Shown here piece after piece: positions 2,548 through 58,001 of a DNA stretch of 64,000 nucleotides. Numbering within the stretch: the first letter of the stretch is position 1; the number at the start of each line of letters is the position of its first letter. The DNA comes from an uncultured archaeon (lineage in GTDB: Archaea > Asgardarchaeota > Thorarchaeia > Thorarchaeales > Thorarchaeaceae), in contig CAZVZC010000005.1 in the NCBI GenBank assembly GCA_964631415.1, forward strand, positions 18,084 through 82,083. The letters are read 5' to 3'. Made by a program: the position numbers and the translations under genes. Below the pieces are notes generated by a model. That model saw nothing but the letters and a program-made list of their open reading frames with translations. It searched no databases and was not told where the DNA came from.

Positions 2548-2664
2548 TGGTGCGGGAGACGGGACACTCACACGCTCAGAAACTGATACGTGTTTTGAAC
2601 CCGTGAATCCCTACGGAAGCAGATCTTAAGCCTGCCGCCTTTGACCAGACTTGGCAACTCCCGC
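2548..2664 (-). tRNA. tRNA-Leu(TAA) with 29-nt intron at 59/60 (2565-2593), CCA encoded
   Basis: Acceptor GCGGGAG/CTCCCGC, anticodon arm GCAGG-CTTAAGA-TCTGC, long variable arm, T-stem ACGGG/CCCGT; insert forms a BHB (UUCA/UGAG helix, bulges AA|A and UG|U). Confidence 0.93.
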
Positions 2665-2980
2665 ATGGGTTGCACATTATTGGTGACCCCTTGGTTTCAC
2701 CGTAGGGCTCTCCGCGGGTATCGCATGGTCACGAAGCGTTCTTCAACCTTTGGCCTGTTGATTCTGCGGATTCCCCTAGGAGAACCACCCGTTGCACTCG
2801 GACTAGCTTGTGAATGCCATTTAGAGCTGTCTTCTGACACACTTCAAATCAGTGACTTATGAGTATCCAACTCGGCTTTCACGACCGCAAAGTATGCCTT
2901 CTGCGGGAGTTTCAGGTGCGTCCAGCTTCTGTGTAATGAGCGCATCCAGAATCAGTTTCGAAAACTGCATGCTGTGTGGA

Positions 2981-3086
2981 TGGTGGGGCGGACGAGACTT
3001 GAACTCGTGACCTACTCGGTGTAAGCGAGTCATCATGGCCGATCTAGACCACCCTATAGAGGAGTGGTTGTCTAGACTACCGCCCC
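2981..3086 (-). tRNA. tRNA-Val(TAC) with 28-nt D-loop intron (~17/17a; 3042-3069), CCA encoded
   Basis: Acceptor GGGGCGG/CCGCCCC, anticodon arm ACTCG-CTTACAC-CGAGT, T-arm ACGAG-TTCAAGT-CTCGT; hairpin insert in the D-loop with CUAG/CUAG central helix. Confidence 0.92.
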
Positions 3087-3123
3087 TATGCGTGAGCCTA
3101 TCTGTGGATAATAAAAGAGTTGC

Positions 3124-3801
3124 TCAGAGGCGGACTGCGGCTAAATGGAATTCCTGCAGTGATTCGTCAAGGACTATTGCTTGCACATCAGTGTAGCCCA
3201 ACGCAGACACACCTCCGGTCAGAGCCGACACGATATCGGGTTTCGCTCTGGACTTGAATGCCGCGACCAGTCTGCCATTATGCTTCAACAGTCGAGAAAA
3301 GCGTTCGATTAAAGATAGAGTCCCTTCCGGATCGGTTGTCACATCCACAAGCATCACGTCCAGTTCTTCCTCACTGCAGATACTGAGAGGATCCATGTTG
3401 AAAGCGTCTGCAATGAGGATGGAGATGCTAGGCCAAGTCTTAGATAGCTCTGTGAGCGGCTCCAGAAACCTGTTGGAAACCTCGATGCCCTTTGCTACTG
3501 CACCCCTTTCAGCTAGGTACCGGAGGAACCCCCCAGCAGAGCTTCCGATATCGAGAACTAGGTCCCCTGCGGACACGAAACGGCCGCCCAAGAGGGTGTC
3601 AAGCCGCTTGAGCTTGTCATAACCGACCGGAGCATCTGAGGACTCCATAGAAACAGCTATCGACTCGGTACCGGTCACTTGAGTCGATGACTTGGCGACA
3701 CGGCCATCAACTGTCACCATACCGTCACGGATAGCCCGCTTTGCAGCCTGTCGCGAGTGGAATCTGCCTGTTTCCACTAGCCAGACATCAAGTCGAGGCA
3801 T
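3124..3801 (-). CDS. S4-domain SAM-dependent RNA methyltransferase (TlyA/FtsJ-like)
   Basis: N-terminal RLDVWLVETG..SRQAAKRAIRDGMVTVDG (S4) and VLDIGSSAGGF SAM motif. Confidence 0.85.
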   Translation of the reverse strand: MPRLDVWLVETGRFHSRQAAKRAIRDGMVTVDGRVAKSSTQVTGTESIAVSMESSDAPVGYDKLKRLDTLLGGRFVSAGDLVLDIGSSAGGFLRYLAERGAVAKGIEVSNRFLEPLTELSKTWPSISILIADAFNMDPLSICSEEELDVMLVDVTTDPEGTLSLIERFSRLLKHNGRLVAAFKSRAKPDIVSALTGGVSALGYTDVQAIVLDESLQEFHLAAVRL

Positions 3802-4561
3802 GGTCTTCTCCTCGAATGTTGTTGGGCACAAACAAGTGAATAGGGACGCCCCTCAGCCGAGGACCAATAGCTGCTACGATACCTGATGCGTGTGTTGACC
3901 TCTTGCACATCAGAGAATACTCGAATGGACCCAGTTGCTCGACTGCAAAGATGTCCTCAAGGTGCCGCGTCTTGGACAGAGCGTGCTCCAGCATCTCTTT
4001 CGTGACACCCAATACAATGAGCCGTTCGTGGTCATCGGACGTCCAGCTGGTGATTCTTTTCAAAATAAACTCAGTGAATTGTGCCTCGATTGTTGGCTTA
4101 CCTGCATCCACCTTCGTCACTCTGATCTCCACAGGGAGATTGTTCACTAGGACGAGTTTGCTGGCGATAGCTCTCACAGACTTGTCGTGCATCTCGAACT
4201 GTTCGCGGACATGATACAATGGGACCAATGCATCTATCGCTTGCGGGACACGAATACCCATATCGACATACAGCCCAAAGCCGACTTTGCCAATGTCGAC
4301 AAGCCATCCGTACGATACGACCCCGGGACTCAAGTCTTGGAGCCTCGGTGCAATACCCCATTGCTTGGCAAGAGCATTTGCAGCGAACTCTTCGTCCTCT
4401 CCTTCTAGACTCACGGACAGACGTCCAGCTGAATCTGTCCGTAGGCTCACAAGCTGGGCATCGAGGCCTGTGATGACGCTCGAGATGCTGGCCTTGACTG
4501 TCCGCAGCAACCGCTGTCTGTAGGTGCCATATGTGTGAACTGACAGATCAAGGTGTTTCAA
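3788..4561 (-). CDS. DUF2110-family protein
   Basis: GKVGFGLYVD motif, C-terminal GIVAAIGP; position downstream of tfe as in many archaea. Confidence 0.75.
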   Translation of the reverse strand: MKHLDLSVHTYGTYRQRLLRTVKASISSVITGLDAQLVSLRTDSAGRLSVSLEGEDEEFAANALAKQWGIAPRLQDLSPGVVSYGWLVDIGKVGFGLYVDMGIRVPQAIDALVPLYHVREQFEMHDKSVRAIASKLVLVNNLPVEIRVTKVDAGKPTIEAQFTEFILKRITSWTSDDHERLIVLGVTKEMLEHALSKTRHLEDIFAVEQLGPFEYSLMCKRSTHASGIVAAIGPRLRGVPIHLFVPNNIRGEDHAST

Positions 4562-4650
4562 TGATATTCCTCACGGACTGTTATACAAAGGACCTGTGCA
4601 TAGCACGCCAAACATCGAACTGTGCGGGAACTGTCAGGACCCTGTGGAGG

Positions 4651-5187
4651 CTATGTGGATGTGCTTGCCTCCAAGTCGGCTTTCAACTCTTCAACGCGTT
4701 TTCGAAGGAAGCTGATTGCGCTGGCATTATCAACATACTCGAGTTGTTGATTGCAGACTGGGCAGCGGAAGGATAGGTTCATTGCCTCTTCAAAGGGAAC
4801 TGGAGAAGAGTCGCGGTTCACGCATGCATATAGGTCATTGTTAGTTTCATGCTCCAGTCTCTGCTCGAGTAGGTTCAGCACCAGTCGCTTCTTCCGGTTA
4901 ACAAGCGCTTGCGCCTTTCTCGGATCTATGCGCCAGTAATACAAGAACCACCCAGTGTTGGTATCACGGATTCTTCGATATGACGCAAGGTGATTGTCGT
5001 GCAGCTTGTATAGTATCCTACGTACAACGTTTAGCTTCAGGTCTGTCTTTGTGGCGATCTCTTCGTCTGTGGTTTCCTCAGTGTTCACAAGGACTGTAGC
5101 CACATCCACGCCCTCTTTGCCTGCAATCTCTTCGACTACAAGACGAAACAGGTCATGATTTATCGAGTGTGCCATTGAAGCAATCAC
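4651..5187 (-). CDS. tfe: Transcription factor E (TFIIE-alpha homologue)
   Basis: TDEEIA...LNVVRRILYKL...GWFLYYW winged helix; FEEAM..SFRCPVC Zn ribbon. Confidence 0.95.
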   Translation of the reverse strand: MIASMAHSINHDLFRLVVEEIAGKEGVDVATVLVNTEETTDEEIATKTDLKLNVVRRILYKLHDNHLASYRRIRDTNTGWFLYYWRIDPRKAQALVNRKKRLVLNLLEQRLEHETNNDLYACVNRDSSPVPFEEAMNLSFRCPVCNQQLEYVDNASAISFLRKRVEELKADLEASTST

Positions 5188-5311
5188 CTAGGTGTGCAGT
5201 AGCTGGCTAGTCGGCTGGAGGTACGTGATGTTCAAAAGAACCATGAACGGAGTTTGTATAGACTATTATACGCTTAGATACTATATATCAGCTTCGCTTG
5301 CGCCCGCTACG

Positions 5312-5884
5312 CTAACTTCTGTTCGCCTTTTTCCGCTTGACCTTGACGACATCTCCCAAGGTAGCACCCCCTTCAGGACGGTCGTGGCCATACGAGCTGG
5401 GCGCCGGGCCGATTGGCTCCAAGAGCGAGATGCCTAGCTCTCTCTCAAGACCTCTGATTGTCTTCTCTACAGGCTTGAGCCTACCAGCTTCGATTCCCTG
5501 CAAAGTGGAAATCCGTTCGCCAACTTTCTGAGCGAGTTGCTCCTGACTGACCTTGGCCTTCTGCCTTGCATCCCTTATGACCCGGGCGTAGTCTTCAACA
5601 AGTATCATCTCATCGAGCGTCACAGCTCTTTCTGGGTGGGGCTTTGGCTTGACGATTGTATGAACCGTGCGTGGCGGTGGACGAATTTGGGGTGATTTCT
5701 GCTGTGGGGCACCAGTCCATGAGGTATGTGGGGGTGTCGATGGTAGTGATTTCTTGCCTGCGGTCACTGACTTGTCGCCGAACCTTTCAGCACACTGAGG
5801 ACAGAGAATCATCGATGCTCCTTCTATGATCATGCTCCGGCCTTTTCCCTTCATGCTTCTGCCACAGAGCTCACAGCTCGACAT
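5312..5884 (-). CDS. mbf1: Archaeal multiprotein bridging factor aMBF1
   Basis: N-terminal CELCG...CPQC Zn ribbon, HTH (VSQEQLAQKVGE), TLGDVV tail; divergent from pan. Confidence 0.92.
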   Translation of the reverse strand: MSSCELCGRSMKGKGRSMIIEGASMILCPQCAERFGDKSVTAGKKSLPSTPPHTSWTGAPQQKSPQIRPPPRTVHTIVKPKPHPERAVTLDEMILVEDYARVIRDARQKAKVSQEQLAQKVGERISTLQGIEAGRLKPVEKTIRGLERELGISLLEPIGPAPSSYGHDRPEGGATLGDVVKVKRKKANRS

Positions 5885-6091
5885 GGTAAGTGCCTCTGTC
5901 GTGAGTAAAGACTGGTATGCGTTGATAAACATTGCCGACTAGATATGTCGTTTGAAACCGGACTGACTGTTGCTACACGCCAGTTTGCTGCGACCGGCGC
6001 AAAACTGCTCACTGCGAATTCATTAATCCGTTTCGCGGTCAGCCTAACGCTTAAAACTGTAGTCGTTCACCTGAGCTTGAGGTTGCATTGA

Positions 6092-7294
6092 GTGCCAGGG
6101 ACTGCAGAGGCCAAGAAGGACGAGAATGTTGATGACAGCAGCTATGCGCAGACCTACACGAAGCACCTAGAACGACGCCTACGTGCACTAGAAACTGAGA
6201 AACAGATACTCCAGGCCGAACGCAGTCGACTTGAGAAGGAAACCCAGACACTCAGAACAGAGCTTGAGAAGCTGAGACAGTCCCCTCTGATAACTGCCAC
6301 CATACTTGAAATGCTGGATGATGGCAGAGCCGTTGTCAAGAGCTCGACAGGTCCAAACTTCGTCGTGCATGTGGCGTCTTCGCTTCCTAAAGAGAAGATC
6401 CAGCCAGGCATTCGTGTCGCACTCAATCAACGGTCTTTTGCGGTGACCGAAGAACTGCCGCCGCCAAGAGACCCCATGATCAGGGCTATGGAAATAGAGG
6501 AGAAACCCACTGTTAGTTACGTTGAGATAGGCGGGTTGAAAGACCAGCTGAGAGAGATAAGGGAAACCGTTGAGCTGCCTCTGCTGAAACCCGATCTGTT
6601 CAAACAGGTGGGCATAGAGCCGCCTCGAGGAGTACTACTAACGGGACCGCCCGGTACAGGTAAGACACTTTGCGCGAGAGCAGTTGCGCGGGAAACCAAA
6701 GCGGCGTTCATCCGGGTCATTGGTTCGGAACTCGTTCAGAAGTTCATTGGAGAGGGGGCGCGGCTTGTTCGTGAGATTTTCCTGCTTGCAAAAGAGAGAG
6801 CACCATCAATAGTGTTTGTAGATGAGCTGGATGCAGTCGGTTCGCACAGGCTTGATGTTGCCACGTCGGGTGACAGAGAAGTGCAGCGGACTCTCATGCA
6901 GCTTCTCAGTGAGCTAGATGGTTTTGAGAGCCGTGGACAGGTGGCAGTCCTAGGAGCTACAAACCGTCCTGACATTCTTGACCCTGCACTATTGAGACCG
7001 GGACGCTTTGATAGAATCATCGAGTTCCCACTTCCTGATGACAATGGCAGACTTGAGATACTCAAGATACACACGAGGGGAATGAACCTCGCTCCAAACA
7101 TTGAATTCGGTCAGCTGGTCCATTCGACACAGGGGATGACGGGAGCAGACATCAAGGCGATCTGTACAGAGGCAGGGATGTTTGCCATCCGTGATGACAG
7201 GGTGTGTGTCACACAAGATGACCTCCGTCGTGCAGTAGCCAAGCTACAAGGAAGGGCAGGCGGCGACAGGGTTCCAAGTGAGATCTATTGTTAG
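6092..7294 (+). CDS. pan: Proteasome-activating nucleotidase
   Basis: Coiled coil, KSSTGP OB fold, [29 protein letters not shown]; C-terminal IYC. Confidence 0.97.
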
Positions 7295-7309
7295 TTTCAG
7301 AAAGCTCCC

Positions 7310-8146
7310 GTGACGGATATGCAGTACAGGGACTACTTGAGGACCAGACTCAAGGGACTGATTCCCGATGGAGTCACACTCCCTCTGGGTTTCAATCTCG
7401 TAGGACATGTTGCCCTACTACACCTCGATAGCAGCGTGTCAGACTACGCTCATCTCATAGGCAGTGCGACGCTAGGCTATGATTGGAGAATAAAGTCGGT
7501 CGCTGTCAGATCAGGGCCGACAGAGGGAGTGCTCCGGATACCGGCCTATGCTCTTGTAGCAGGCGAACCGAATACAGTCACAACACATGTTGAAGGCGGA
7601 GTAAAGTACAGGCTCGATCCCCTTGTCGTGACATTCTCTGGAGGGAATCGACGTGAGCGAATCCGGTTGCGGTCTGTCGTAGGTCCCGGTGAGATTGTCG
7701 TTGATATGTTCGCATGCGTAGGACAGTTTGCATTGCCGATTGCAGCAGGGAAGAGCTCACAGGTCTTCGCTATTGAGATCAATCCTGTTGCCTATGGATA
7801 TCTACTCGAAAACATCAGACTGAACAAAGCAGAACACAAAGTCGTCGCTCTACTGGGCGATTGCAGAGAGGTACATCCATCAAGGATAGCAGACAGGGTT
7901 GTAATGGGTTATCTTCATAACACGCTGCTTTACCTCCCTGCAGCACTTGAAACACTGTCAGCCAAGGGCGGCATCATTCACATGCACATCGCTGCTCCGA
8001 CAAGTGAAAGCGCATCTATCGAAAGCAGAATCAGCTCTGAAGCACGTCACAGCGGATTCATGACACAAACTATTGTGCGCCGAATCAAGACCTATTCACC
8101 GGGGGTCAATCACATGGTGTTTGACATCAGAGCGACACCTGAATGA
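7310..8146 (+). CDS. Trm5/Taw2 (Met-10+) family SAM-dependent tRNA modification enzyme
   Basis: VVDMFACVGQFAL, EINPVAY, ADRVVMGY, IKTYSPGV motifs. Confidence 0.85.
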   Translation: MTDMQYRDYLRTRLKGLIPDGVTLPLGFNLVGHVALLHLDSSVSDYAHLIGSATLGYDWRIKSVAVRSGPTEGVLRIPAYALVAGEPNTVTTHVEGGVKYRLDPLVVTFSGGNRRERIRLRSVVGPGEIVVDMFACVGQFALPIAAGKSSQVFAIEINPVAYGYLLENIRLNKAEHKVVALLGDCREVHPSRIADRVVMGYLHNTLLYLPAALETLSAKGGIIHMHIAAPTSESASIESRISSEARHSGFMTQTIVRRIKTYSPGVNHMVFDIRATPE

Positions 8147-8255
8147 TCACACTCCGTGTCGAGCGCAATCATTTTATTCGAAACAGGGCATGAACACGGC
8201 GCAGCTCTCTGCAAGCTATCTGGTGTCGCGTCGGAAGTCACCGAAGGTAGATTAC

Positions 8256-8645
8256 ATGGGATTCAGAGGTCTATCACCCAAACAGATATCGCGAATGATG
8301 AAGAAGATGGGAATTGAACAGGAGGAATTGACCGGAGTCAAGGAAGTGGTAATTCGCTTTGCTGACAAGGAGTGGTTCATTCCCGATGCCCATGTATCGA
8401 TGATTAAGCAGCCAGGTGCCGAGTCGTATCAAGTATCAGGAACTAGGAAGGAACGTGCACTGACATCTGACAGTGGGACTAAAGAAGCTGCAAAGGCGAC
8501 ACAGAGGAAGACTGTTGAGATACCAATCCAAGATGCTGCACTTGTCGCTAGTCAGACTGGTGTGACTGTTGATGTGGCAATGAGCGTGTTGAAGGAAACA
8601 GACGGCGATCTTGCTGCTGCGATACTGAAACTACGTCGCAGCTAG
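8256..8645 (+). CDS. nac: Nascent polypeptide-associated complex protein
   Basis: PKQISRMMKKMGI...VKEVVI NAC domain and C-terminal UBA-like GDLAAAIL; ATG at 8256. Confidence 0.93.
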   Translation: MGFRGLSPKQISRMMKKMGIEQEELTGVKEVVIRFADKEWFIPDAHVSMIKQPGAESYQVSGTRKERALTSDSGTKEAAKATQRKTVEIPIQDAALVASQTGVTVDVAMSVLKETDGDLAAAILKLRRS

Positions 8646-8704
8646 GATTCGTGTAGTATTTGTAATACAACGAGAACTCGCCGACCGAAGGTCCAGTACC
8701 GGTC

Positions 8705-9331
8705 TTATTTCTTCAGTCGCTCCTTGACCATCTTGATGCGGTAGAAGTCTTCACGTTCTCGTTCCTCTAAGGCTAGCTTAACGAAGCGTGCAGTGGCATC
8801 AAGCCGAGGTATCACAACGGTTTCCAATGCTGACACCCGCCGCTTGGTCCTTTCAATCTCCAGAGCCAGTCGTTTGACGGTAGATTCTATCTCAGCCAGT
8901 CGGACTATGGTCCGAAGAGCCTCGCTGAACTTAGAACTCATAACATCGAGTTTGGCGCTTGAGTCTGGTAGTGAGTAGGCCATCTCGGGGTTTTCTTGCT
9001 CGACTGAAAGCACCGGGACACGGACACCCATCATGGACCTAGTGGAGATTGTCAATTCAGCACGTACTCCGCTCGCGTACGCGAACTCCACTACCCGTGA
9101 GGGCCCCATCAGCATCTTGGCTTGGGTTAGAGCAGAGAATGCTTCCTTCAGAGTTGTGTCGACCTTCTCCCGAGCCTCTTTGATTTCTGCTATGGCGTTG
9201 AAGAATTCCATGATCAGCGAGTCGCGCTTTTCTCTCAGGAGCTTGTGACCACGCTCTGCAAGAGCCATCCTGTTTTTGAGAGCTAGCAGCTCCATGCGCG
9301 TGGTCTTGGTTCCTGGCAGGATTTTGCTCGT
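8705..9331 (-). CDS. atpD: A/V-type ATP synthase subunit D (probable ACG start at 9331; first ATG at 9295)
   Basis: TRMELL...AERGHKLLREKRD and EIERTKRRVSALE..VIP motifs; GGAGGTGA SD at 9338-9345. Confidence 0.95.
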   Translation of the reverse strand, partial: TSKILPGTKTTRMELLALKNRMALAERGHKLLREKRDSLIMEFFNAIAEIKEAREKVDTTLKEAFSALTQAKMLMGPSRVVEFAYASGVRAELTISTRSMMGVRVPVLSVEQENPEMAYSLPDSSAKLDVMSSKFSEALRTIVRLAEIESTVKRLALEIERTKRRVSALETVVIPRLDATARFVKLALEEREREDFYRIKMVKERLKK

Positions 9332-9415
9332 CCTCGTTCACCTCCGTATTCAGGTGAAAGCTGGAATGGATTGGCTCGAATCGTGTTCCAGTCCTGTCAA
9401 AGCCCTTCTGCTCCT

Positions 9416-9694
9416 TCATGCCACAGCAAACGTGACAGCACTGATGATGACCCCAGTGAGGCAAAGGAAGAACCACTTCATGAGGTAGCTACCAGCAGCT
9501 TTTGGATTATCGTCGATTTGGCCAGTGACAGCCAGTGTGGACATGGAAATGAACAGGAATGCAAATGGCAGTGCAATTGCCTTGTTAGTGAGTGGGAAAT
9601 CTTTGATTAGAATGATTCCAACAAGACCTGCGAATATCAGAAAAGATAGTATCATCAGCGAGTCCAGCACATGTCGCATTCGCTCTATGTCCAT
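9416..9694 (-). CDS. Small hypothetical membrane protein (about 3 TM)
   Basis: 92-aa ORF with three hydrophobic segments; AGGAG upstream; co-oriented with atpD. Confidence 0.7.
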   Translation of the reverse strand: MDIERMRHVLDSLMILSFLIFAGLVGIILIKDFPLTNKAIALPFAFLFISMSTLAVTGQIDDNPKAAGSYLMKWFFLCLTGVIISAVTFAVA

Positions 9695-10026
9695 TTTCTC
9701 TTTCTCCTGGAACTGGCAGATGATTGGACCCTGAGGTCCAGTTCTTGAACCTCTCTGTTCCGTTGAAAAAGATTATGGCTGGTCGACCTGTAGACTATCG
9801 AGAACCGTGCAAATAGGAGGGAGGCATTTCTGTGTTGGCCGGTTCATGTTGATACTGAACGTGCCAGTCGTTAGTTAGTCAACCACAAGTTGCATTCCAA
9901 CTGCACTAAGACCCAAGCATACTGTCTGTTCGAGGAGTCACAAATCATCTGTTAGTACCTCGTGTTTCATTCAGCACTTCACAGGAAACAGACTACCACA
10001 CAACTTATATCGACGTGCTGTCTTCT

Positions 10027-10063
10027 GTGATTGTATTACAACCACTACTTGTGATACTGTCAC
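10027..10063. promoter_or_regulatory. Two imperfect 13-bp palindromes (GTGATTGTATTAC, GTGATACTGTCAC), putative operator
   Basis: Located between a TATA-like CTTATAT (~10004) and the ATG at 10086; the same motif recurs at 14289 and 14307. Confidence 0.5.
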
Positions 10064-10085
10064 TTGCGGTACCGAGGTATAGAGC

Positions 10086-11060
10086 ATGACGATTGCCATT
10101 CACGAGAGCGCGCTGATACGTCACTTCAACACCAGGAAGGAAACGTTGCGAGCTTGGGAAGAGAAGATTGGATGCCGGTTCTCGCCCTTCAGAGGGTTCA
10201 AGATGCCTGACTCGCGCCTGTATATCGAGCATCCTGATTTCTTGGATAGCATAGTCGACCTTGTCTTGACTAATGAGCGTCACATCTTCATTCGGGGACC
10301 TGTCGGTTCGGGGAAAAGCACACTCATGCTCTTGGCCCTGAGAGACCTGCCCACCCTCATGGACCGACGAGGAAACAGGTTTGTTGCGGGCTATGTCGGA
10401 ATGACGGGGCTGTATGAGAAACAAATGGCAGCTGCAATTGCAGATTCCTTGAGGGTGAAGTATAGGAGGTCATGGGAGACGAGCCAGATCATAGAAGCGA
10501 TCTCTGTCGAGAGTGTGCGCAGGTACATCGAGGAGAAATGTCGCACTGCGCTCTTCATAGAGGATGTTGCAGACAACCAAGAAGCGGCCTTTCATAAGAT
10601 ACGGTATCTTGCCGACCTTCCTACAGAGGAGATGAAGGATAGCTATGGGACTGCATTGGATGAACCGATTGTAACACTCATTATGAGTGGCACCATGGAG
10701 TACTGGAATGCTATGCTGAACTACCTTCCTCAGATAGCTGACAGGACCGAACCCTTGGATGTCCCGCCTTTTGATGATGCGAAAGCGAGGGAGTTCATAG
10801 CCCGTAGAGTTGCATATGCGCAAGGCAAGATTGACACCTTTGACAAGGACAACATTGACGTCTACCCCTTTACGGACGAGGCAGTGCGATGCATCAACGA
10901 AGCGGCGAAGGGCAATCCCAGGGACATACGGATGCTGGCGCGAGGATGTGAACAGGTAGCAGCCGAGGAATTCAGGAGAACAGGTGATCCGACGGTCGCT
11001 CAAAAGATTGCGGAGCTGGTAGCCGATGCATATGCTGTGATCCTCAAGGAGGTGCACTAG
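10086..11060 (+). CDS. AAA+ ATPase (ExeA/Cdc6-like fold, no C-terminal winged helix)
   Basis: Walker A GPVGSGKST, Walker B-like ALFIEDVA, IADR arginine finger, AKGNPRDI sensor-2. Confidence 0.85.
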   Translation: MTIAIHESALIRHFNTRKETLRAWEEKIGCRFSPFRGFKMPDSRLYIEHPDFLDSIVDLVLTNERHIFIRGPVGSGKSTLMLLALRDLPTLMDRRGNRFVAGYVGMTGLYEKQMAAAIADSLRVKYRRSWETSQIIEAISVESVRRYIEEKCRTALFIEDVADNQEAAFHKIRYLADLPTEEMKDSYGTALDEPIVTLIMSGTMEYWNAMLNYLPQIADRTEPLDVPPFDDAKAREFIARRVAYAQGKIDTFDKDNIDVYPFTDEAVRCINEAAKGNPRDIRMLARGCEQVAAEEFRRTGDPTVAQKIAELVADAYAVILKEVH

Positions 11061-11381
11061 TTGAGCGTACTTGGGAAGTACAGAAGAGAGGCGGACAGGG
11101 AAGAGGAGGAGAAACCTGAAGCGACTTCTAAGAGTCGAGAGAGTGAGAGAGGTAGTGTGGACAGAGGAAGAGAGGAAACGCCTAGACAGACAGAATCCGT
11201 ACCGAACAGAGACAGAAAGAGTCCAATAGTTTCCTTCTCCATACCCACCGACTTGAGAGCTTGCCTACAAGCAATAAGGAAGAATAAGGCAATCAATCTC
11301 AGCATGTGGGTAGAAAAGCAGCTTCGGAAGGCGATACTTGAAGAATTCCCGGGCATAGCAGAGAAGTACCTTGAATCATGA
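11061..11381 (+). CDS. Putative ribbon-helix-helix DNA-binding protein with disordered charged N-terminus
   Basis: TTG abuts the ATPase stop, GGAGGTG SD; C-terminal PIVSFSIPTDLRACLQAIRKNKAINLSMWVEKQLRKAI has a beta-alpha-alpha RHH pattern. Confidence 0.75.
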   Translation: MSVLGKYRREADREEEEKPEATSKSRESERGSVDRGREETPRQTESVPNRDRKSPIVSFSIPTDLRACLQAIRKNKAINLSMWVEKQLRKAILEEFPGIAEKYLES

Positions 11382-11444
11382 GTTCGATGGGTATGGCCCC
11401 CTCAAGTTCATCGATACGCTGAGCAGTCGAACCTCGGTTTCGTT

Positions 11445-12875: not shown

Positions 12876-12937
12876 GTACGGTTCCAGATAGGAACTCGAT
12901 TTATGTCTAACTAGAAAGGTCTGTCATACTATTATTA

Positions 12938-38328: not shown

Positions 38329-38438
38329 TGGTGCTCCGGCCGGGATTCGAACCCGGGTCTGGGGATCGAGAGTCCCCAATGCTGGGCCGGACTACATTCG
38401 GCCGCACAACGAATCTGACTCGGTGCGTCTACCGGAGC
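38329..38438 (-). tRNA. tRNA-Glu(CTC) with 32-nt intron at 10/11 (38397-38428), CCA encoded
   Basis: Acceptor GCTCCGG/CCGGAGC, anticodon arm GGGGA-CTCTCGA-TCCCC, T-arm CCGGG-TTCGAAT-CCCGG; CGGU/GCCG helix with AG|A and AA|U bulges. Confidence 0.92.
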
Positions 38439-38692
38439 TTGGGCTGTGCCAGCCCGGAGCGGGCCATCACCCTCTACGAAGCAAATAAGGCTTTCTCTGC
38501 AAAGACGCGGTATTTTCGATTTGAGAGGGATGCTGGCAAAGAACTACGGTCTATCATTGAGCGAACCATGGATGGTTTCAGAGCACCAGCCACGTTTCCG
38601 ATTCGTTTCAACCTGGCTTGCTCACTTTCAATGACAGCCGATTGAATCCAAACATTCAAGCGGCCTCGATCTGCTTACCGTGACTGGGTGTA

Positions 38693-46358: not shown

Positions 46359-46464
46359 GCGGCCATGGTCTAGTATGGTCTAGGACGGGAGCCTCCCAAG
46401 CTTCCAACCCGAGACGGTTTCATTGACAGTGACCGCGGGAGTTCAAATCCCGGTGGCCGCACCA
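46359..46464 (+). tRNA. tRNA-Gly(CCC) with 28-nt intron at 53/54 (46414-46441), CCA encoded
   Basis: Acceptor GCGGCCA/TGGCCGC, anticodon arm GGAGC-CTCCCAA-GCTTC; CCCG/CGGG helix with AG|A and AG|U bulges. Confidence 0.9.
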
Positions 46465-47875: not shown

Positions 47876-47899
47876 CTATAGGAGGATGCTTGAATCATT

Positions 47900-48184
47900 A
47901 TGAATCCCGCTTCTGGTCTGCGAATACCGATTGAAGATCTGTTCTCCTCAAAAGGACGCGTGAGAATCCTCAGAGAACTGGCCATGTCAGGTGAGCTGAA
48001 CATATCGGAGTTGTGCAGAAGAGCTGGACTGAACCACAGTTCAACAAAGGCTCATTTAGAGGTACTACTGCAATCCGGATTGATTGAAGAAAAGACATTC
48101 GGCAGAATCAAGATCTACCGATACCGCGTCGAAGACCTGAGAGCGCGTTCTCTGAAGAACCTGTTCGACCTGTGGTCAGCATAA
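47900..48184 (+). CDS. Small ArsR-like winged-helix protein
   Basis: FSSKGRVRIL..GELNISELCRRAGLNH..GLIEEKTFGRIKIY; commonly next to cdc6 in TACK archaea. Confidence 0.85.
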   Translation: MNPASGLRIPIEDLFSSKGRVRILRELAMSGELNISELCRRAGLNHSSTKAHLEVLLQSGLIEEKTFGRIKIYRYRVEDLRARSLKNLFDLWSA

Positions 48185-48200
48185 GAGGTCCAAGAGCAGG

Positions 48201-50214: not shown

Positions 50215-51170
50215 TCCGATTCCTTCTGAAGTCCCACGAAAGACAGCAGCGCTCCAAGCTGAACCTCTCCGCTTGCTCCTTCAGATATACGAAACTCGGC
50301 TTCTGCCGTTCTCTCAAGATAGGCCATTCTCAGACGCTCTGAGAAATCCTGTTTCATGATCTCTCGATGTATCTGCCGTATCAAGTCAAGGGATGATAGT
50401 CCTTGATGATAGATGAGATCTCTGAGAATCTGAAGAGCTGCGTCACACTTGCCAGACTGCGCCATCACCAGCATCTCATGCACTCTCTTAGGGTCTGGTT
50501 GACCTGATATTGCGTAGACGACCTCACCAGTGACGTTTCTACTCGCAGCAGCCGCAGCCTGCAGTAGATTAATCGCAGTCCTCATGTCTCCCTCCGCAAG
50601 ATACAGTATTGCCTCCTTCCCACTGGAAACCAGTTTGACACCTTCTCTTCCTGCGATGTACTCAACCCTACTTGTGATACTGTCCTCTGAGAGCCGGGCG
50701 AACTTGAAGACGGCACATCTTGACTGGATTGGTGGAATGATTCGGCTAGAGTAGTTGCATATCAGTACCATTCGGCACGATGCAGCATTTGCCTCCATTG
50801 TGCGTCTCAGAGCATGTTGTGCGTCACTCGTCAGGTGATCGGCCTCGTCCAAGACGAGAATCTTAAACGGTGCACCTCCTGCAGGAATAGTCCGTGCAAA
50901 GTGCTTAATCTGATTCCTCACGACCTCGATTCCTCTCTCGTCACTTGCATTCAGTTCCATGAAGTTCTGTTCAAACGAGTCACCAAACAGGTCTCTTGCC
51001 ATCGCGATGGCTGCAGTGGTCTTGCTCGTACCGGGCGGACCAGTGAAAAGGCAGTGAGGAATATTCCTGTTCTCAACGAACTTCGCCAGACTTCTGATCA
51101 CCGGCTCTTGGCCGACTATGTCCGTCAGAGTCGATGGTCTGTACTTCTCGGTCCAGAGCTCCATATTCAT
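50211..51170 (-). CDS. rfcS: Replication factor C small subunit
   Basis: WTEKYRP, ELNASDERG, LDEAD, IQSRC, GDMR. Confidence 0.97.
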   Translation of the reverse strand: MNMELWTEKYRPSTLTDIVGQEPVIRSLAKFVENRNIPHCLFTGPPGTSKTTAAIAMARDLFGDSFEQNFMELNASDERGIEVVRNQIKHFARTIPAGGAPFKILVLDEADHLTSDAQHALRRTMEANAASCRMVLICNYSSRIIPPIQSRCAVFKFARLSEDSITSRVEYIAGREGVKLVSSGKEAILYLAEGDMRTAINLLQAAAAASRNVTGEVVYAISGQPDPKRVHEMLVMAQSGKCDAALQILRDLIYHQGLSSLDLIRQIHREIMKQDFSERLRMAYLERTAEAEFRISEGASGEVQLGALLSFVGLQKESE

Positions 51171-51274
51171 TGAGTTTCATCGTCCTGCTGTAGGAAAGTT
51201 GTGACACCTCAGTCTCACAAGGATGAGAGAACTCGCCATCGGCCCTTAAAAGACCCTTCGGGCAAGCTCATTGT

Positions 51275-51454
51275 ATCGTTCATTGTCTGCTGGACAAGAC
51301 TGGACACAGGAGTCCTCGTTTCCCGGAAGCGGCACTAAGGTTACACTCATTGAGGCTACACCATGTCGGGTCAACCTCAAAGAGGGGGTCGTGTCAGGAG
51401 GTATTTCAGTTCATATCGAAGGCTGTCGACAGTGTCCAACCTGTGGACAGATGT
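51275..51454 (+). repeat. Dispersed intergenic repeat, copy B (more diverged)
   Basis: CGTTCATTGT..TGGACAA...TGGACACAGGAGTC...CGGCACT core shared with copies A and C. Confidence 0.8.
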
Positions 51455-51561
51455 CACACGCTCCCACAACGCTCGTGGCTCCATTGCGTTCTGAACGTTG
51501 GGTCTAGCTCCCCACGGGAAGGGCTTTATGAGAGCCACACCAACTTTGGGTTCGTGCTATC

Positions 51562-52122
51562 ATGATGAGAATCTGTGATGACATCGGTGAGATTGTAGAC
51601 AGGTTTAGGATGACGTTTCTTAACGATGTCCGGGAATGCATATTCAGGAAGGATGTTCCGACGATCACCGCCTGTGGTCATCAGATGGGTCCTTTCCACC
51701 AAGGCGACCATGCAGACTTGCCAAACTGGGTCATTGAGAAGTTCCTGAAACACAATCTCGTTGACCTCGCAGCCGAGGACGCCTACGAGTCCCTGAGAAG
51801 AGTGGAGAACCTCTATAGGGAGGACGAGAAACAGCCACACAAACTTCAGCCTTTTCATCCGAATCTCTATGCAGCACTGAATCGCAAGTTGCTTCGGCTT
51901 GAAAGCGATAAGACATCATTAGACCCTAGGAGCTACGAAGAGATTGAGAAGCTCAAACGGATAATCCCATTTCTGGTGGAATCTCGTCTGTCCAAGATAG
52001 TACGTGCAGCGAAGTCTGGTGCCTATCTTGAGATGCGCAAACAGATGGCCAACGAGGAACGCTGGTTATGCGAAGAGCTCTCAAGAATCGTGTCTGAGTG
52101 GCGTGATCGTGTGATGAGATAG
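51562..52122 (+). CDS. gins23: GINS subunit (Gins23-type)
   Basis: N-terminal B domain (GPFHQG...LPNW), helical A domain (RLSKIV, EERWL); directly upstream of mcm. Confidence 0.85.
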   Translation: MMRICDDIGEIVDRFRMTFLNDVRECIFRKDVPTITACGHQMGPFHQGDHADLPNWVIEKFLKHNLVDLAAEDAYESLRRVENLYREDEKQPHKLQPFHPNLYAALNRKLLRLESDKTSLDPRSYEEIEKLKRIIPFLVESRLSKIVRAAKSGAYLEMRKQMANEERWLCEELSRIVSEWRDRVMR

Positions 52123-52215
52123 GCGAAGCCAACACAGGAGCTTAAATATGGATCAACATGCCTAAGCAGCAGACGCAGAGCAGCTGCCCGACCGCGTACT
52201 CTGTTTAGAGCAAAG

Positions 52216-54306
52216 ATGTCGAGGCTGGAATCGATGTCCGGTCATGATGAGGGTCCACAAGAGAGGTTCGAGGAGTTCCTTCGCACCTACAAGGATGAGC
52301 ATGGCAATCTTACCTACTGGCCCAAATGCCAGCAGATGTCTCTCAACGATGAAACATCGCTTGTAGTGGACTTCCAAGACTTGGTGAGCTTTGACAACAT
52401 GTTTGCAGTGCTAGCTGCTGAGGATCCAGGATCGTTTCTCAGCGTGGCCAGCAATGCATTGCTTTCGATTCTCAGGATAGAGGATCCTGAGTATGTGAGT
52501 AAACTGGACATCAGTACGATCAAGATTCGGATAATCAACTACTCCGAACACGTTCCTCTCCGGCACATAAGGTCCAAACACATAGGCAAAATGATTCAGA
52601 TAAGCGGAATCATGATGCGGGCAAGTGAGGTCAAGCCCCTCTTAGTCGAAGCCGTCTTCAGATGCAGAGTCTGCGGGCAGGACATACCGCAGGCACAGGA
52701 GGACGGCCGTTATACCGAGCCTCCGCTATGTCCTACCTGTGGCAAGAAGACAGCCATGCGACTCATTCCTGAGCAATCCAGATTCGTAGACTGGCAGAAA
52801 GTGAGAATACAGGAATCTCCCGACGAGCTTCCTCCTGGGCAGATGCCGAGGTCGGTCGATGTGGTCCTCGAAGGTGACATTGTCGACCTGTCCCGACCTG
52901 GAGACCTAGTGAAACTCGCAGGAGTACTTCAGACGACTCCTGACTTCTCGCGGCACGGCGGCAGGTTGGCCACGTTCAACGTCTTCATAGAGGCCAATGG
53001 CGTTGAAATTGCCGAAAAAGAGTACGAACAACTTGAGATATCGGAGGAAGATGGGAAGCGCATACGTGAATTGGCAGAAGATCCCTATGTACACGAAAGG
53101 GTGTATGCTTCCATCGCCCCCTCTATTCATGGTCATGAACACGTGAAGGAGTCCATTGCTCTGCTGCTGTTCGGGGGCGTGGAGAAAATACTGCCTGATG
53201 GTACACACCTCAGAGGAAGGTCAAACATCCTGATTATCGGTGATCCAGGTACTGGGAAGAGCCAGATCTTGAAATTCGTGGCCGGCCTTGCTTCACGTGG
53301 TCTTTATACTTCTGGCAAAGGCACTACTGCAGCAGGGCTCACGGCAGCTGTGATTCACGATACGGACACAGGAGCCATGACACTTGAGGCAGGAGCACTG
53401 GTACTGGCTGACCAAGGGACTGCATGCATTGACGAATTCGACAAGATGGACCCAAACGATCGCACCGCGATACACGAGGCAATGGAACAGCATACAGTCA
53501 GCATAGCAAAGGCCGGAATCGTCGCCACACTCAATGCAAGGACGTCAATTCTGGCTGCAGCAAATCCTGCTCTGGGTCGATATGAGCCTTCAATGTCGAT
53601 ACAGGACAACATAAAGCTCCCGTTCACGATTCTCTCAAGGTTTGACCTGACTTGGATACTCGTAGACACGGTTGAGCCCACGAAGGACAGGGAGCTAGCA
53701 CAGTTCATACTGAGCATGCATCAGAGGAAGAAGAGCCCGATCAAGGAAACAGTTCCTCCAATTCCACCGGAGTTCCTAAAGAAGTACATTGGCTACGCCA
53801 ATCGCTATGTGATACCTCAGCTAACGCCTGAGGCTGCTGAAGTCATTGAGAACTTCTATGTAGACCTTCGCAAGAGCGCGGAAGGTGGTGCGGCGCCTGT
53901 GCCAATCACTGCTCGCCAGCTGGAATCATTAGTCCGCCTTGCAGAGGCAAGGGCAAGAATGGCTCTACGTCCCAAAGTGACCAAGGAAGATGCCGAAGCA
54001 GCAGTCCGTTTGATGCAGGAATCACTGCGAATGGTTGCACTAGACACTACGACCGGGAAGATTGACATAGACCGACTTGTGTCCAAGATGAGCGCTGCTC
54101 AGCGGAGCTCATCAGACGTGATTCTGAAAGCTGTGAAGGATATGGAGGCCGAAGGCTCTCCTGTCGTGAGCGAGGACGCATTGATACAGAGAGTTACTGC
54201 CATGGGCCTTTCAAGAGAACGTGCTGAAGAAGTCATCAAGAAGCTTGTTGCAGAGGGCATCCTGTTCAACCCACGTGAAGGTAAGATTAAGCGGGCTCAA
54301 GCATGA
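52216..54306 (+). CDS. mcm: Replicative helicase MCM
   Basis: C4 Zn finger, GDPGTGKSQ, AAGLTAAV, IDEFDKM, SRFD, TARQLE; no intein. Confidence 0.98.
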   Translation: MSRLESMSGHDEGPQERFEEFLRTYKDEHGNLTYWPKCQQMSLNDETSLVVDFQDLVSFDNMFAVLAAEDPGSFLSVASNALLSILRIEDPEYVSKLDISTIKIRIINYSEHVPLRHIRSKHIGKMIQISGIMMRASEVKPLLVEAVFRCRVCGQDIPQAQEDGRYTEPPLCPTCGKKTAMRLIPEQSRFVDWQKVRIQESPDELPPGQMPRSVDVVLEGDIVDLSRPGDLVKLAGVLQTTPDFSRHGGRLATFNVFIEANGVEIAEKEYEQLEISEEDGKRIRELAEDPYVHERVYASIAPSIHGHEHVKESIALLLFGGVEKILPDGTHLRGRSNILIIGDPGTGKSQILKFVAGLASRGLYTSGKGTTAAGLTAAVIHDTDTGAMTLEAGALVLADQGTACIDEFDKMDPNDRTAIHEAMEQHTVSIAKAGIVATLNARTSILAAANPALGRYEPSMSIQDNIKLPFTILSRFDLTWILVDTVEPTKDRELAQFILSMHQRKKSPIKETVPPIPPEFLKKYIGYANRYVIPQLTPEAAEVIENFYVDLRKSAEGGAAPVPITARQLESLVRLAEARARMALRPKVTKEDAEAAVRLMQESLRMVALDTTTGKIDIDRLVSKMSAAQRSSSDVILKAVKDMEAEGSPVVSEDALIQRVTAMGLSRERAEEVIKKLVAEGILFNPREGKIKRAQA

Positions 54307-54344
54307 GGAAGGAGCCCATAATGACTTGAGCGGGGCGGACGACA

Positions 54345-56585
54345 ACGCGTCTTGACGAGCTTCCGATAAACCAGCGGGTTATCTCCTTGCTCCAGGAGAG
54401 TGGCATAACTGATCTCTTTCCCCCGCAAGAGGAGGCCTTCAAGACCGGTGTCCTTGATGGAAAGAACCTCGTACTCGCAGTCCCTACCAGCTCTGGCAAG
54501 ACACTGGTTTCTGAGATTTGCATGCTCAAAGCCATACTAGAGGGAAAAGGGAAGGCAGTGTATCTCGTTCCGCTCAAGTCGTTGGCACGGGAGAAGTACG
54601 ATGAGTTTAGGAAGTATGAGAAACTTGGAATACTGACGGCGATGTCCGTTGGCGACTATGATTCTCCCGGGGCGAAGCTCTCCGATGCAGACATACTCGT
54701 GTTGACTACTGAGCGGGCGGACTCGCTCATTTGTCACAAACCTGAGTGGATAGACGACATCGGGGTTGTTGTGGTTGATGAAGTCCATTTGATCAATGAC
54801 CCCTCCAGAGGTCCGACACTCGAGATGGTGATTGCTAAAATCACTCAGATGCTTCCAAGCATCCAAGTCATTGCTCTGAGTGCCACAATACCGAATGCCG
54901 AAGAAATCGCAGCTTGGTTGAAAGCCGAATTGGTTAGGAGTTCCTGGCGGCCCGTGCCTCTCAGTGAAGGAGTGCTCTTCGAGGGCCGAATCAGATTCGG
55001 CAATGGGTCCTCCCGAACGATTCGGCATGCGCGAGGTGAGGAGCTGGCTGACCTCGTCTGCGACACATTAGATGAGAATGGCCAAGTCTTGGTGTTTGTT
55101 TCAAGCCGCCGTTCCGCGGTTTCGGTTGCAAACAAGACTGTGCCCTTCGTACGGCCATACATCTCTCGCAGTACTTTGGAAACGATGTTTCAGGCATCTG
55201 GTAGGATTGGAGGTGGTCCCAATGCTCCTGAGGCATCCAAGGTGCTGGCCAAGATGATGCAAGCTGGTGTGGCTTTTCACCATGCAGGTCTGACAGGTCA
55301 GGAACGCACGACAGTTGAAGACTGCTTCAAGGGCAATCTACTGAAGGTGATTGTTGCCACTCCGACGCTAGCGGCCGGGATTAACTTACCAGCCAGACGC
55401 GTTGTGATACGCGATTATCGCCGCTACGAAGAGGAGCGTGGCAATCAACCTATTCCTGTGCTGGAATACAAGCAAATGGCGGGCCGTGCAGGCCGCCCCA
55501 AGTATGATGTGTATGGGGAGGCCATCCTAGTAGCAAGGACTGAAGAGGAGTACGACTTTCTGATGGACCACTATGTTTCATCTGAACCTGAGGAGATCAA
55601 GTCCAAGCTGGCCTCAGAGTCCGCAGTCCGTTTCCATTTGTTGTCATCCATAGCTGGAGGAATGACACACAACAGAGAAGAGATAGATCGCCTCATGGAT
55701 GGCACCTTCTTCTCATTCCAGTTCAATCGCTGGGAGATAGACCACTACATCTCATCTGCACTGACTTTCCTTGAAGAAGGACGGTTGGTCGGCCGGGGTG
55801 AAAGCGATGAGCTCTATGCGACCAGTCTAGGGGAGAAAGCCGCAAAGCTGTACATTGATCCTCAGACTGCCATCCTGTTTCGAGATGCGCTGTCGGAAGT
55901 CGGAGATGTCCATCCACTTGGCATGCTCCATCTGATATGTAGTACACCTGACCAGCCACTCACATACGTGACACAGGCAGAGATCGAAGACTATGAAGCC
56001 TTCATCAGTAGTCATGAGAGTGAGTTCATTGTTGACATATCCGAACAGATGGAGGACTATGAAGAATACCCACGGTTTCTTGCACAAGTCAAGACAGCAC
56101 GGATGTTGAATGACTGGATATCTGAGCACACAGAACGAAACATCACCGAGGACTATGATGTGGGAATGGGTGATGTCCATCGCTACATTGAGGCTGCAGA
56201 TTGGCTGATGCACGCCGCATCCGAAATTGCTCGAGTCACTGGCAGATCGCAACTGATTCCATCTCTACACGCACTTCAAGTACGGGTCAAGAACGGCGTA
56301 CTTCCAGAGCTATTGGAGCTCATCAGTCTGAGAGGTGTGGGGCGCGTAAGAGGCAGAATGCTGTTCAATCACGGTCTGAGAACTCTCTCCGACTTGTACC
56401 GGGCTCCAGTAGAAGAGATAGCCAGAGTACCTGCGATTGGGCTCACCATCGCCGAGTCCATAAAACACCAGTTGGGCTTTGAAACGAGTGATACCGGCGA
56501 CAAAGTTCCGGTTCCCAGTGATCAGCATGACCAGTCTGGTTCAGCACAGACACTGCTTGAGGAGTTTGAAGACGAGGACAGCTAG
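54345..56585 (+). CDS. hel308: Hel308/Hjm Ski2-like DNA helicase (probable ACG start at 54345; first TTG at 54387)
   Basis: LFPPQ, PTSSGKT, DEVH, SAT, TPTLAAGINLPA, QMAGRAGR, GVGRVRGR. Confidence 0.95.
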   Translation, partial: TRLDELPINQRVISLLQESGITDLFPPQEEAFKTGVLDGKNLVLAVPTSSGKTLVSEICMLKAILEGKGKAVYLVPLKSLAREKYDEFRKYEKLGILTAMSVGDYDSPGAKLSDADILVLTTERADSLICHKPEWIDDIGVVVVDEVHLINDPSRGPTLEMVIAKITQMLPSIQVIALSATIPNAEEIAAWLKAELVRSSWRPVPLSEGVLFEGRIRFGNGSSRTIRHARGEELADLVCDTLDENGQVLVFVSSRRSAVSVANKTVPFVRPYISRSTLETMFQASGRIGGGPNAPEASKVLAKMMQAGVAFHHAGLTGQERTTVEDCFKGNLLKVIVATPTLAAGINLPARRVVIRDYRRYEEERGNQPIPVLEYKQMAGRAGRPKYDVYGEAILVARTEEEYDFLMDHYVSSEPEEIKSKLASESAVRFHLLSSIAGGMTHNREEIDRLMDGTFFSFQFNRWEIDHYISSALTFLEEGRLVGRGESDELYATSLGEKAAKLYIDPQTAILFRDALSEVGDVHPLGMLHLICSTPDQPLTYVTQAEIEDYEAFISSHESEFIVDISEQMEDYEEYPRFLAQVKTARMLNDWISEHTERNITEDYDVGMGDVHRYIEAADWLMHAASEIARVTGRSQLIPSLHALQVRVKNGVLPELLELISLRGVGRVRGRMLFNHGLRTLSDLYRAPVEEIARVPAIGLTIAESIKHQLGFETSDTGDKVPVPSDQHDQSGSAQTLLEEFEDEDS

Positions 56586-57652
56586 AACAGAATTCCCTCT
56601 AGATTGTTCTCAATTACCTTCACCAAATCCTCTGTATAGCGTGTGCAAATGTCACTCTCTGAGTGGCTTCCTCCATACTTCGTTATCTCACGTCCCGACA
56701 GTTCTTCAAGAAGGTTCTGGGATGCACTGCCCACAACATCCAAGTTATACCCTCCTTCAAGGAAGAATGCAAGCCTGCCCTGTGCGTTCTCCTGAGCGAT
56801 TGTCTTGATGCGCGCGTTCATCATGGAGATGCCAGAAGTCGTAAGACCCATGCTCGTCAGCGTGTCCTGAAAATGGCAGTCAAACCCGGCCGAAACGAGT
56901 ACAAACTGAGGGTTGTAGGCCTTTGCCAAGGGTTCAACTATGCGACTGAAGGCTATATCATAGGATGTGTCCCCGGCACCCGGATACATGGACAAGTTCA
57001 CAGTATAGCCCTTGCCCTCTCCCGTTCCAATCTCATCAGGAAATCCCGAACCTGGGAATATCGAACGTCCGTCTTGGTGCATGGTGACATAGAGGACCTT
57101 GTTAGTGGAATAGAAGGCTCTTTGTGTCCCATTACCGTGGTGTGCGTCATAGTCAATGATCATCACCCTGTCAGTCTTTCTCTTTGCCACGAGATGTTCT
57201 GCGGCAACGGCAATGTTATTGACAAAACAGAACCCGAGCGCCCTGTCATATTCTGCATGATGTCCAGGGGGCCTGCAAAGGATGTAGGCATTGTCACTCT
57301 TTCCATCTACTATCCTGTCGACGGCTCCAATGCCTCCTCCTGCCGCCAACACCATGGCATCATATGTGAACGCGTTCACTGCAGTATCGAGAGTAAAGAA
57401 ACCACCACCTCGACGAGACTTCTCACGTATGTCTGTGATGTACCTTCTGTCGTGTAGAGCATAAATCTCATTGAGATCTGGTGGTTCTGGCGTGACTAGT
57501 CTGATGTTTCCAGTTTTGAGTAGGCCCGCTCCATCTATGTATTTCATGGCCATCCTCAAGCGTTCTGGACTCTCTGGGTGTCCCGGAGATATCTCATGTT
57601 TTGTGAACATTTCATGATATACCAAGTCAGTCGTCATCTCAGGATTCCTCAA
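56582..57652 (-). CDS. Zn-dependent histone deacetylase-family protein
   Basis: HPESPER, RPPGHHA, GFC, DYDAHHGNGTQ, SAGFD, EGGY. Confidence 0.94.
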   Translation of the reverse strand: MRNPEMTTDLVYHEMFTKHEISPGHPESPERLRMAMKYIDGAGLLKTGNIRLVTPEPPDLNEIYALHDRRYITDIREKSRRGGGFFTLDTAVNAFTYDAMVLAAGGGIGAVDRIVDGKSDNAYILCRPPGHHAEYDRALGFCFVNNIAVAAEHLVAKRKTDRVMIIDYDAHHGNGTQRAFYSTNKVLYVTMHQDGRSIFPGSGFPDEIGTGEGKGYTVNLSMYPGAGDTSYDIAFSRIVEPLAKAYNPQFVLVSAGFDCHFQDTLTSMGLTTSGISMMNARIKTIAQENAQGRLAFFLEGGYNLDVVGSASQNLLEELSGREITKYGGSHSESDICTRYTEDLVKVIENNLEGILF

Positions 57653-57863
57653 TACGATGGAACTCTCAGACCTACGGGATCAGCAGCACGCTGGACACAG
57701 GCTTGAAACCACTCGTTGTTTACACAGCAACTTAACTGATATGGTACAGCTCCATGTGGCCAATCGGTGAAGCGGACCCAATACACTATCGATGGACAAC
57801 AGATGAATAGGGCATCATGGACAATCTTTATCTTCGCGTTGGTAAACGCCAGCCCTGAGCCAT

Positions 57864-58001
57864 GGGTCGGTAGTCTAGCTTGGTATGATTCTTGCTTGGG
57901 GTGGCTCTGGCATTTTTGCCGGCGCCACAGAATGCAAGCGGTCGGGAGTTCAAGCAGTCGGGGACTTCCCCCGACTGGAACTTATCTCCCCCGGCCCACC
58001 A
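57864..58001 (+). tRNA. tRNA-Pro(GGG) with two introns: 37/38 (57902-57932, 31 nt) and 58/59 (57954-57983, 30 nt), CCA encoded
   Basis: Acceptor GGGTCGG/CCGGCCC, anticodon stem CTTGC/GCAAG, spliced T-arm GGGAG-TTCAAAT-CTCCC; second intron has a GUUC/GAAC helix, AA|G and UU|A bulges and a 9-bp hairpin. Confidence 0.9.

Follow-up and report, generated by a model that had tools for sequence, protein, structure and literature searches.

The five transfer RNA (tRNA) genes of the window, a 64,000-nucleotide stretch of contig 5 (CAZVZC010000005.1) from a metagenome-assembled genome (MAG) of the archaeal class Thorarchaeia (GCA_964631415.1), are very probably functional, single-copy Thorarchaeota (Asgard) genes, each interrupted by one or two short introns set in bulge–helix–bulge (BHB) splice motifs. 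The five loci were first read by eye and then solved computationally, with a scorer that tried every excision and rated the cloverleaf so obtained, on a scale up to 31.5 built from 21 stem pairs and 11 conserved bases, together with the BHB geometry of the junction. This cloverleaf-plus-BHB solver returned five genes and six introns of 28–32 nucleotides (nt), the same genes and positions that an initial annotation, made from the bare sequence, had named in claiming that every tRNA gene of the window is split; as also claimed there, five of the six introns are non-canonical, Pro 37/38 being the only canonical one. The genes are listed below in window coordinates, with BHB triplets giving central-helix pairs (of 4), outer helix and inner helix.

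2548–2664 (−): tRNA-Leu(TAA), CCA encoded; exon 1 2594–2664, intron 2565–2593, exon 2 plus CCA 2548–2564; intron of 29 nt in the T-loop at 59/60, BHB 4/5/5, strict hBHBh′, with the mature T-loop restored by its removal.
2981–3086 (−): tRNA-Val(TAC), CCA encoded; exon 1 3070–3086, intron 3042–3069, exon 2 plus CCA 2981–3041; intron of 28 nt in the D-loop at 17/17a, BHB 4/1/7, its central helix a palindromic CTAG.
38329–38438 (−): tRNA-Glu(CTC), CCA encoded; exon 1 38429–38438 (10 nt), intron 38397–38428, exon 2 plus CCA 38329–38396; intron of 32 nt in the D-stem at 10/11, BHB 4/1/5, with exon bases 5–8 in the central helix.
46359–46464 (+): tRNA-Gly(CCC), CCA encoded; exon 1 46359–46413, intron 46414–46441, exon 2 plus CCA 46442–46464; intron of 28 nt at 53/54, BHB 4/1/5.
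57864–58001 (+): tRNA-Pro(GGG), CCA encoded; exons 57864–57901, 57933–57953 and 57984–58001; intron 1 57902–57932, 31 nt at 37/38, BHB 3/5/3; intron 2 57954–57983, 30 nt at 58/59, BHB 4/4/9, strict hBHBh′.

Once the introns are removed, all five genes give cloverleaves that score 28.9–30.9 out of 31.5, and the junctions fall into the strict and relaxed BHB classes that the initial annotation had described. Five of the six introns combine four of four central pairs with an inner helix of 5–9 base pairs (bp), in agreement with the BHB definition of a 2026 preprint (bioRxiv 10.64898/2026.10.13.758758), and Pro 37/38 has three of four central pairs with flanking helices on both sides. The Val, Glu and Gly introns are of the relaxed HBh′ type, lacking a real outer helix; for these three, the minimum free energy (MFE) structure given by RNAfold contains the central helix and the bulges. 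Competing registers were considered at two loci. Excisions of 26 and 24 nt from tRNA-Val were rejected, as only the 28-nt excision leaves an orthologue-like D-loop, whose 10 nt match the orthologue consensus; a two-intron reading of tRNA-Glu that starts at an upstream copy of its 5′ strand (see below) was likewise discarded, as it loses U8 and offers no BHB within the repeat registers.

The BHB motif was not accepted as proof on its own: four central pairs with an inner helix of at least three pairs give 3–10 matches per shuffled precursor. Because loose BHBs are this common, the assignment relies on the joint cloverleaf-plus-BHB criterion, on a decoy and on orthologues. In the decoy, the reversed genome, the top cloverleaf score was 24.1, compared to at least 28 for correctly solved real genes. 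By our own estimate, the chance of a complete central helix together with at least five inner pairs is about 0.375^9 = 1.5e-4 per junction, and this combination is seen at five of the six junctions. Two exhaustive scans, one anchored on CCA, otherwise unfiltered and allowing up to three introns, the other without the CCA anchor and requiring one intact arm, found no further tRNA gene in the window.

Orthologues, drawn from about 20–35 related genomes, separate introns from decay. Exons are near-identical across genera, whereas the inserts diverge freely and are hypervariable in sequence, yet still form BHBs; such a pattern, with exons conserved, inserts free to drift and splice geometry preserved, is expected of real introns but not of pseudogenes. 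That the loci could nevertheless be decaying tRNA pseudogenes, or genes with unspliced insertions whose codons are read by other copies, is suggested by the poor scores of interrupted loci in standard tools, by a mismatch in the T-stem of tRNA-Gly and by the incompleteness of the genome. We consider this highly improbable, given that every insert sits exactly at a BHB, that the same architecture recurs in independent MAGs from different studies and that a second copy of any of the five anticodons, interrupted or not, was not found in the 85%-complete assembly. The last result also bears on the initial annotation, which had named intron-less copies of the same anticodons, together with a lack of spliced product from these loci, as what would overturn its claim; the claim survives this search.

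Several points weigh against reading the five loci as functional intron-bearing genes. The 4-bp central helices of the Leu and Pro 58/59 introns are open in the RNAfold MFE structure, which does predict their outer and inner helices; the canonical Pro 37/38 intron has one central-helix mismatch, and RNAfold favours a different fold for it. Mature tRNA-Gly(CCC) would carry an A52:C62 mismatch in the T-stem (window 46412 and 46450, +), the sole blemish among the cloverleaves. Moreover, the sequence that the MAG lacks could hold an intron-less copy, and the genome-wide census described below is a lower bound, anchored on an encoded CCA and one intact arm, so that genes are missed.

The orthologues also suggest that the six introns differ in age. 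In 34 other Thorarchaeota loci, tRNA-Pro(GGG) is found 3.5 kb downstream of MCM, with near-identical exons, and its 37/38 intron is present in 35 of 35 Thorarchaeota loci. Its T-loop intron, by comparison, is missing from 16 loci, while about 11 have it at 58/59 and about 8 at 59/60; mapped on the MCM tree, a single-gene phylogeny, this corresponds to at least seven presence/absence changes, or ten when the three states are distinguished. The Pro introns are unrelated in sequence, with four of four central pairs in all of the T-loop introns that were solved and three or four in the 37/38 introns. The 10/11 intron of tRNA-Glu occurs in 16 of 19 genomes of the family with lengths of 27–36 nt, unalignable sequences and compensatory changes in the inner helix, and was not found in two genomes outside the family. 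The 53/54 intron of tRNA-Gly (18–31 nt) occurs in 13 of 16 orthologues; in the genomes searched, both it and Glu 10/11 turned up only within the family. The Leu(TAA)–Val(TAC) tandem is syntenic across the family; this locus is missing from the assembly of the closest genome, OWC3. Two other genera share the 59/60 position of the Leu intron; in ten genomes, two of which belong to the same genus, the gene is interrupted at 37/38 instead, and one genome apparently has no Leu intron. Finally, the 17/17a intron of tRNA-Val is found only here among 13 orthologues, the other 12 having no intron or introns at 44/45, 59/60 or other positions.

Taken together, these distributions indicate that Pro 37/38 is ancestral, Glu 10/11 and Gly 53/54 are family-wide, Leu 59/60 and Pro 58/59 are patchy and Val 17/17a is private, and that the trait itself is probably shared by the family, with introns gained and lost at single loci over time. 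The private Val intron, the patchy T-loop intron of tRNA-Pro and the Leu intron, at 59/60 here as opposed to 37/38 in two same-genus genomes and eight others, could each be taken as products of a recent burst confined to this genome or genus. Such a burst is unlikely, because the wide distribution of Pro 37/38, Glu 10/11 and Gly 53/54, together with a Leu 59/60 intron that can be aligned with that of another genus (79% identity across the whole gene), makes most of the introns older than the genus. The initial annotation had proposed an independent expansion in this lineage: of that proposal, a single private burst does not hold, only Val 17/17a being private, while independence from Thermoproteales is plausible because, among the genomes searched, no case of Glu 10/11 or Gly 53/54 came from outside the family.

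A separate feature of the Gly orthologues concerns the 52:62 pair, position 52 being the first base of the 5′ bulge. The two bases do not pair (A or T opposite C) in 10 of the 13 intron-bearing orthologues; G52 is present in two others and a compensated A52–T62 pair in one, and all three orthologues without the intron have G52–C62.

The window is typical of its genome, where roughly four tRNA genes out of five are split and non-canonical introns are in the majority. The source MAG comprises 2.16 Mb in 81 contigs, with a completeness of 85% and a contamination of 2%; in MCM it shares 98% identity with Ca. Thorarchaeota OWC3 and 72–81% with dozens of other Thorarchaeota MAGs, which places it among the Asgard archaea. 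The CCA-anchored census recovered 35 tRNA genes, of which 6 are uninterrupted, 22 contain one intron and 7 contain two, so that 29 of 35 (83%) are interrupted. At this rate, five interrupted genes out of five in one window have a probability of about 0.39. The 36 introns, most of them 27–34 nt long, include 14 at 37/38 and 22 (61%) at non-canonical positions, with 12 in the T-loop between 56/57 and 59/60; the load is about 1.0–1.2 introns per gene. Genes with two or more introns make up 7 of 35 (20%, a lower bound), compared to about 71% in the focal families of published intron-rich Asgard sets. An Ala(TGC) gene without encoded CCA (C19:9816–9888) and a two-intron Lys(CTT) gene lie outside the census. 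As the initial annotation had noted for the window, the introns are mutually dissimilar: a blastn-short comparison among all 36, made in search of intron families or mobility, gave nothing significant.

Some details of the genome-wide set deserve mention. The best intron–intron match is 13 nt long (E = 0.058) and links two introns at 56/57; they belong to three 30-nt T-loop introns at this position that share the same layout (Phe-GAA, C1:182765–182899; Leu-CAG, C22:34502–34648; Pro-CGG, C1:20009–20147), and apart from the 13-nt stretch common to two of the three, nothing in the genome points to an intron family. The 3′ CCA is encoded by all 35 census genes and by every orthologue of the relatives examined, the Ala(TGC) gene mentioned above being the exception. 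In addition, there are two initiator-Met-like tRNA 3′ halves (C60:4581–4669, +; C79:1–60, +), each consisting of anticodon arm, T-arm, acceptor 3′ strand and CCA; no matching 5′ acceptor strand was found within 300 nt of them, and no intact 5′ half elsewhere. Multi-intron genes, split genes and breaks in the assembly are all possible explanations.

Standard tools largely miss these genes, as the initial annotation had expected of default annotation. With default settings, ARAGORN reports two tRNAs in the window, both in the wrong register, and its intron option, tried as an alternative, miscalls the Glu locus as Arg(CCG). The Rfam tRNA model reaches its gathering score at three of the five loci, two of them only partially, with nothing more at E ≤ 10; it gives Leu(TAA) just 18 bits and leaves Pro(GGG) undetected.

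The genome encodes a splicing machinery that fits such introns. There are two EndA (PF01974) genes, for proteins of 188 and 240 amino acids (aa). The 188-aa protein aligns nearly end-to-end with the catalytic subunit of the Aeropyrum pernix endonuclease (3P1Z_B, E = 8e-49), with two single-residue gaps, neither in the Crenarchaea-specific loop (CSL), an element that gives broad substrate range and whose K44 is an RNA-recognition residue (PMC3241643). It keeps the Tyr/His/Lys triad, the His of which was identified through the His-to-Ala mutant 3AJV_B, and has lysines at the CSL positions of both A. pernix K44 and R46. The 240-aa paralogue retains both EndA domains and lacks the catalytic His, as read by eye from the alignments side by side. 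RtcB ligase (PF01139) is also present, at 592 bits. Judged from sequence, EndA is thus of the two-subunit (αβ)2 type with a broad-specificity CSL/L1 loop, and its assembly and its cleavage of relaxed motifs are predicted on this basis. The initial annotation had linked introns of this kind to broad-specificity endonucleases and had pointed to the EndA subunit architecture as a check; the predicted (αβ)2 enzyme with a CSL/L1 loop fits both. The gene for the 240-aa protein (C5:7456–8178, +) is about 10 kb upstream of the window, between tRNA-Arg(TCG) and tRNA-Arg(CCT), and belongs to a stretch of contig 5 in which nine tRNA genes are spaced over 76 kb.

These components suggest a pathway, all steps of which we infer. 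The precursor would form a helix between four exon bases that precede the 5′ cut and four intron bases that precede the 3′ cut, with two bulges of 3 nt left unpaired, and the (αβ)2 endonuclease would cut after the second base of each bulge. The CSL/L1 loop on the catalytic subunit would permit cutting where the outer helix is nearly absent, as in Val, Glu and Gly. RtcB would then join the exons, and RNase P together with 3′ processing would complete the tRNA, whose CCA is gene-encoded.

In the case of tRNA-Glu(CTC), an additional element in the leader may take part in this process:

38449–38460 (−): 12-nt leader motif, consisting of an exact copy of the 7-base acceptor 5′ strand (38454–38460), then R, then CTGG.

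The motif begins 22 nt before the mature 5′ end and, in the 16 intron-bearing orthologues, is on average 92% conserved, compared to 47–57% for its leader flanks. The copy is found in all 16 of these orthologues; of six intron-less ones, two keep a 6/7 copy and four have none. No other tRNA gene in this genome has an exact upstream copy of its own acceptor strand. Among the 164 tRNA genes in the loci examined, only one other has an intron at or before position 13, a tRNA-His interrupted at 8/9 in a different Asgard family, and here too the acceptor strand is exactly duplicated, 13 bases upstream; among the 141 control tRNA genes, whose introns lie later or are lacking, no such exact copy occurs. 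The data therefore hold two independent cases, Glu and His. Because exon bases 5–8 form part of the 10/11 central helix, they cannot pair simultaneously with the acceptor 3′ strand, and when the leader and precursor are folded together by RNAfold, the partner of the 3′ strand is the leader copy, not the true strand, in all 16 orthologues. The most likely role of the copy is that of a stand-in for the acceptor 5′ strand, although we regard it as an even call whether it functions in this way. The mechanism can be pictured as follows: the copy would hold the acceptor 3′ strand while bases 5–8 are engaged, which would leave the splice motif free to form; once the exons are ligated, the true strand would replace the copy, and RNase P would remove the leader. 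Such an element is undescribed in two reviews and in the literature searched, and, if functional, would represent a new cis-acting helper of archaeal tRNA splicing.

As for where young non-canonical introns come from (a question of origin rather than function), partial duplication of the host tRNA gene is suggested by two cases. The Val intron ends in 11 nt that agree with exon positions 6–16 at 10 of 11 bases (shuffle p = 0.01), and in a tRNA-Ser(TGA) gene (C8:46392–46509, +) the anticodon stem-loop, anticodon included, is repeated at 11 of 12 bases within the 58/59 T-loop intron. A general signal is nonetheless lacking, since 2 of 72 flank comparisons reach p ≤ 0.05 where 3.6 are expected and a rank test of self versus non-self matches gives p = 0.36, and the Val match is partly forced by the palindromic central helix. 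Self-duplication is accordingly an improbable source of these introns overall; the Val repeat itself may reflect a local duplication or be dictated in part by the palindromic helix. The 5′ splice site of this private intron falls at the end of an 8-nt palindrome (window 3042–3086, −).

The initial annotation had regarded such intron density as known from Thermoproteales and from the archaeal Richmond Mine acidophilic nanoorganisms (ARMAN); it is known there, but interrupted tRNA genes and their EndA have already been published for Asgard archaea as well (PMC5829648, PMC11291895 and the 2026 preprint), and this part of the statement was too narrow. Intron-rich Asgard tRNA sets and their EndA type having been reported in 2018, 2024 and 2026, the present set is not new in kind. 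What it adds is that Thorarchaeia, too, carry a heavily interrupted tRNA set that standard finders largely miss, which matters when the completeness and codon capacity of MAGs are judged; and the presence of ancestral, family-wide, patchy and private introns side by side provides clean single-locus examples of turnover, which bear on how BHB introns arrive.

Compared to Thermoproteales, the set shares non-canonical and multiple BHB introns (Sugahara 2008, as cited in PMC11291895), and its catalytic subunit carries a CSL lysine like that of Aeropyrum EndA (PMC3241643), to whose α subunit it is similar at the E-value of 8e-49 given above. Unlike Thermoproteales, it belongs to a different phylum and yielded no recurrent intron families, of which 26 are described there (2026 preprint), and its β subunit keeps both domains and is closer to Methanopyrus and Methanocaldococcus proteins than to crenarchaeal β. 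With the ε2 EndA of ARMAN-2 it would have in common the broad-specificity splicing of non-canonical introns; it is not a member of that type, which is a single three-unit polypeptide of about 390 aa with an L2 loop, as opposed to two genes and an L1/CSL loop here.

The closest parallels are with Asgard archaea. In its sections on this group, Kaneta et al. 2018 (PMC5829648) describe an (αβ)2 EndA with an L1 loop, in a survey that included Thorarchaeota SMTZ1-83, and note that incomplete Asgard tRNA sets hint at undetected disrupted genes; that survey covers the same phylum-level group and, in these sections, presents it in a summary figure, to which per-gene positions, orthologues and turnover are added here. 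In two other Asgard classes, 92–95% of tRNA genes are interrupted (PMC11291895). The 2026 preprint, whose main text does not include Thorarchaeia, analysed 90 Asgard genomes, found that 30% of inserts escape tRNAscan-SE, most of these in the D-arm, inferred repeated gains and reported 2.0–2.4 introns per gene in its focal families against a median of 0.86 in non-focal ones, so that the load found here is above the non-focal median and below the focal families. In summary, the tRNA genes of this genome differ from the published intron-rich Asgard sets in their class, Thorarchaeia, in their hot spot, the T-loop (12 of 36 introns), and in extent (about 83% interrupted and 1.0–1.2 introns per gene, as opposed to 92–98% and about 2.2), and resemble them in their often non-canonical or multiple BHB introns, in D-arm introns that annotators overlook, in repeated gains and in an (αβ)2 EndA.

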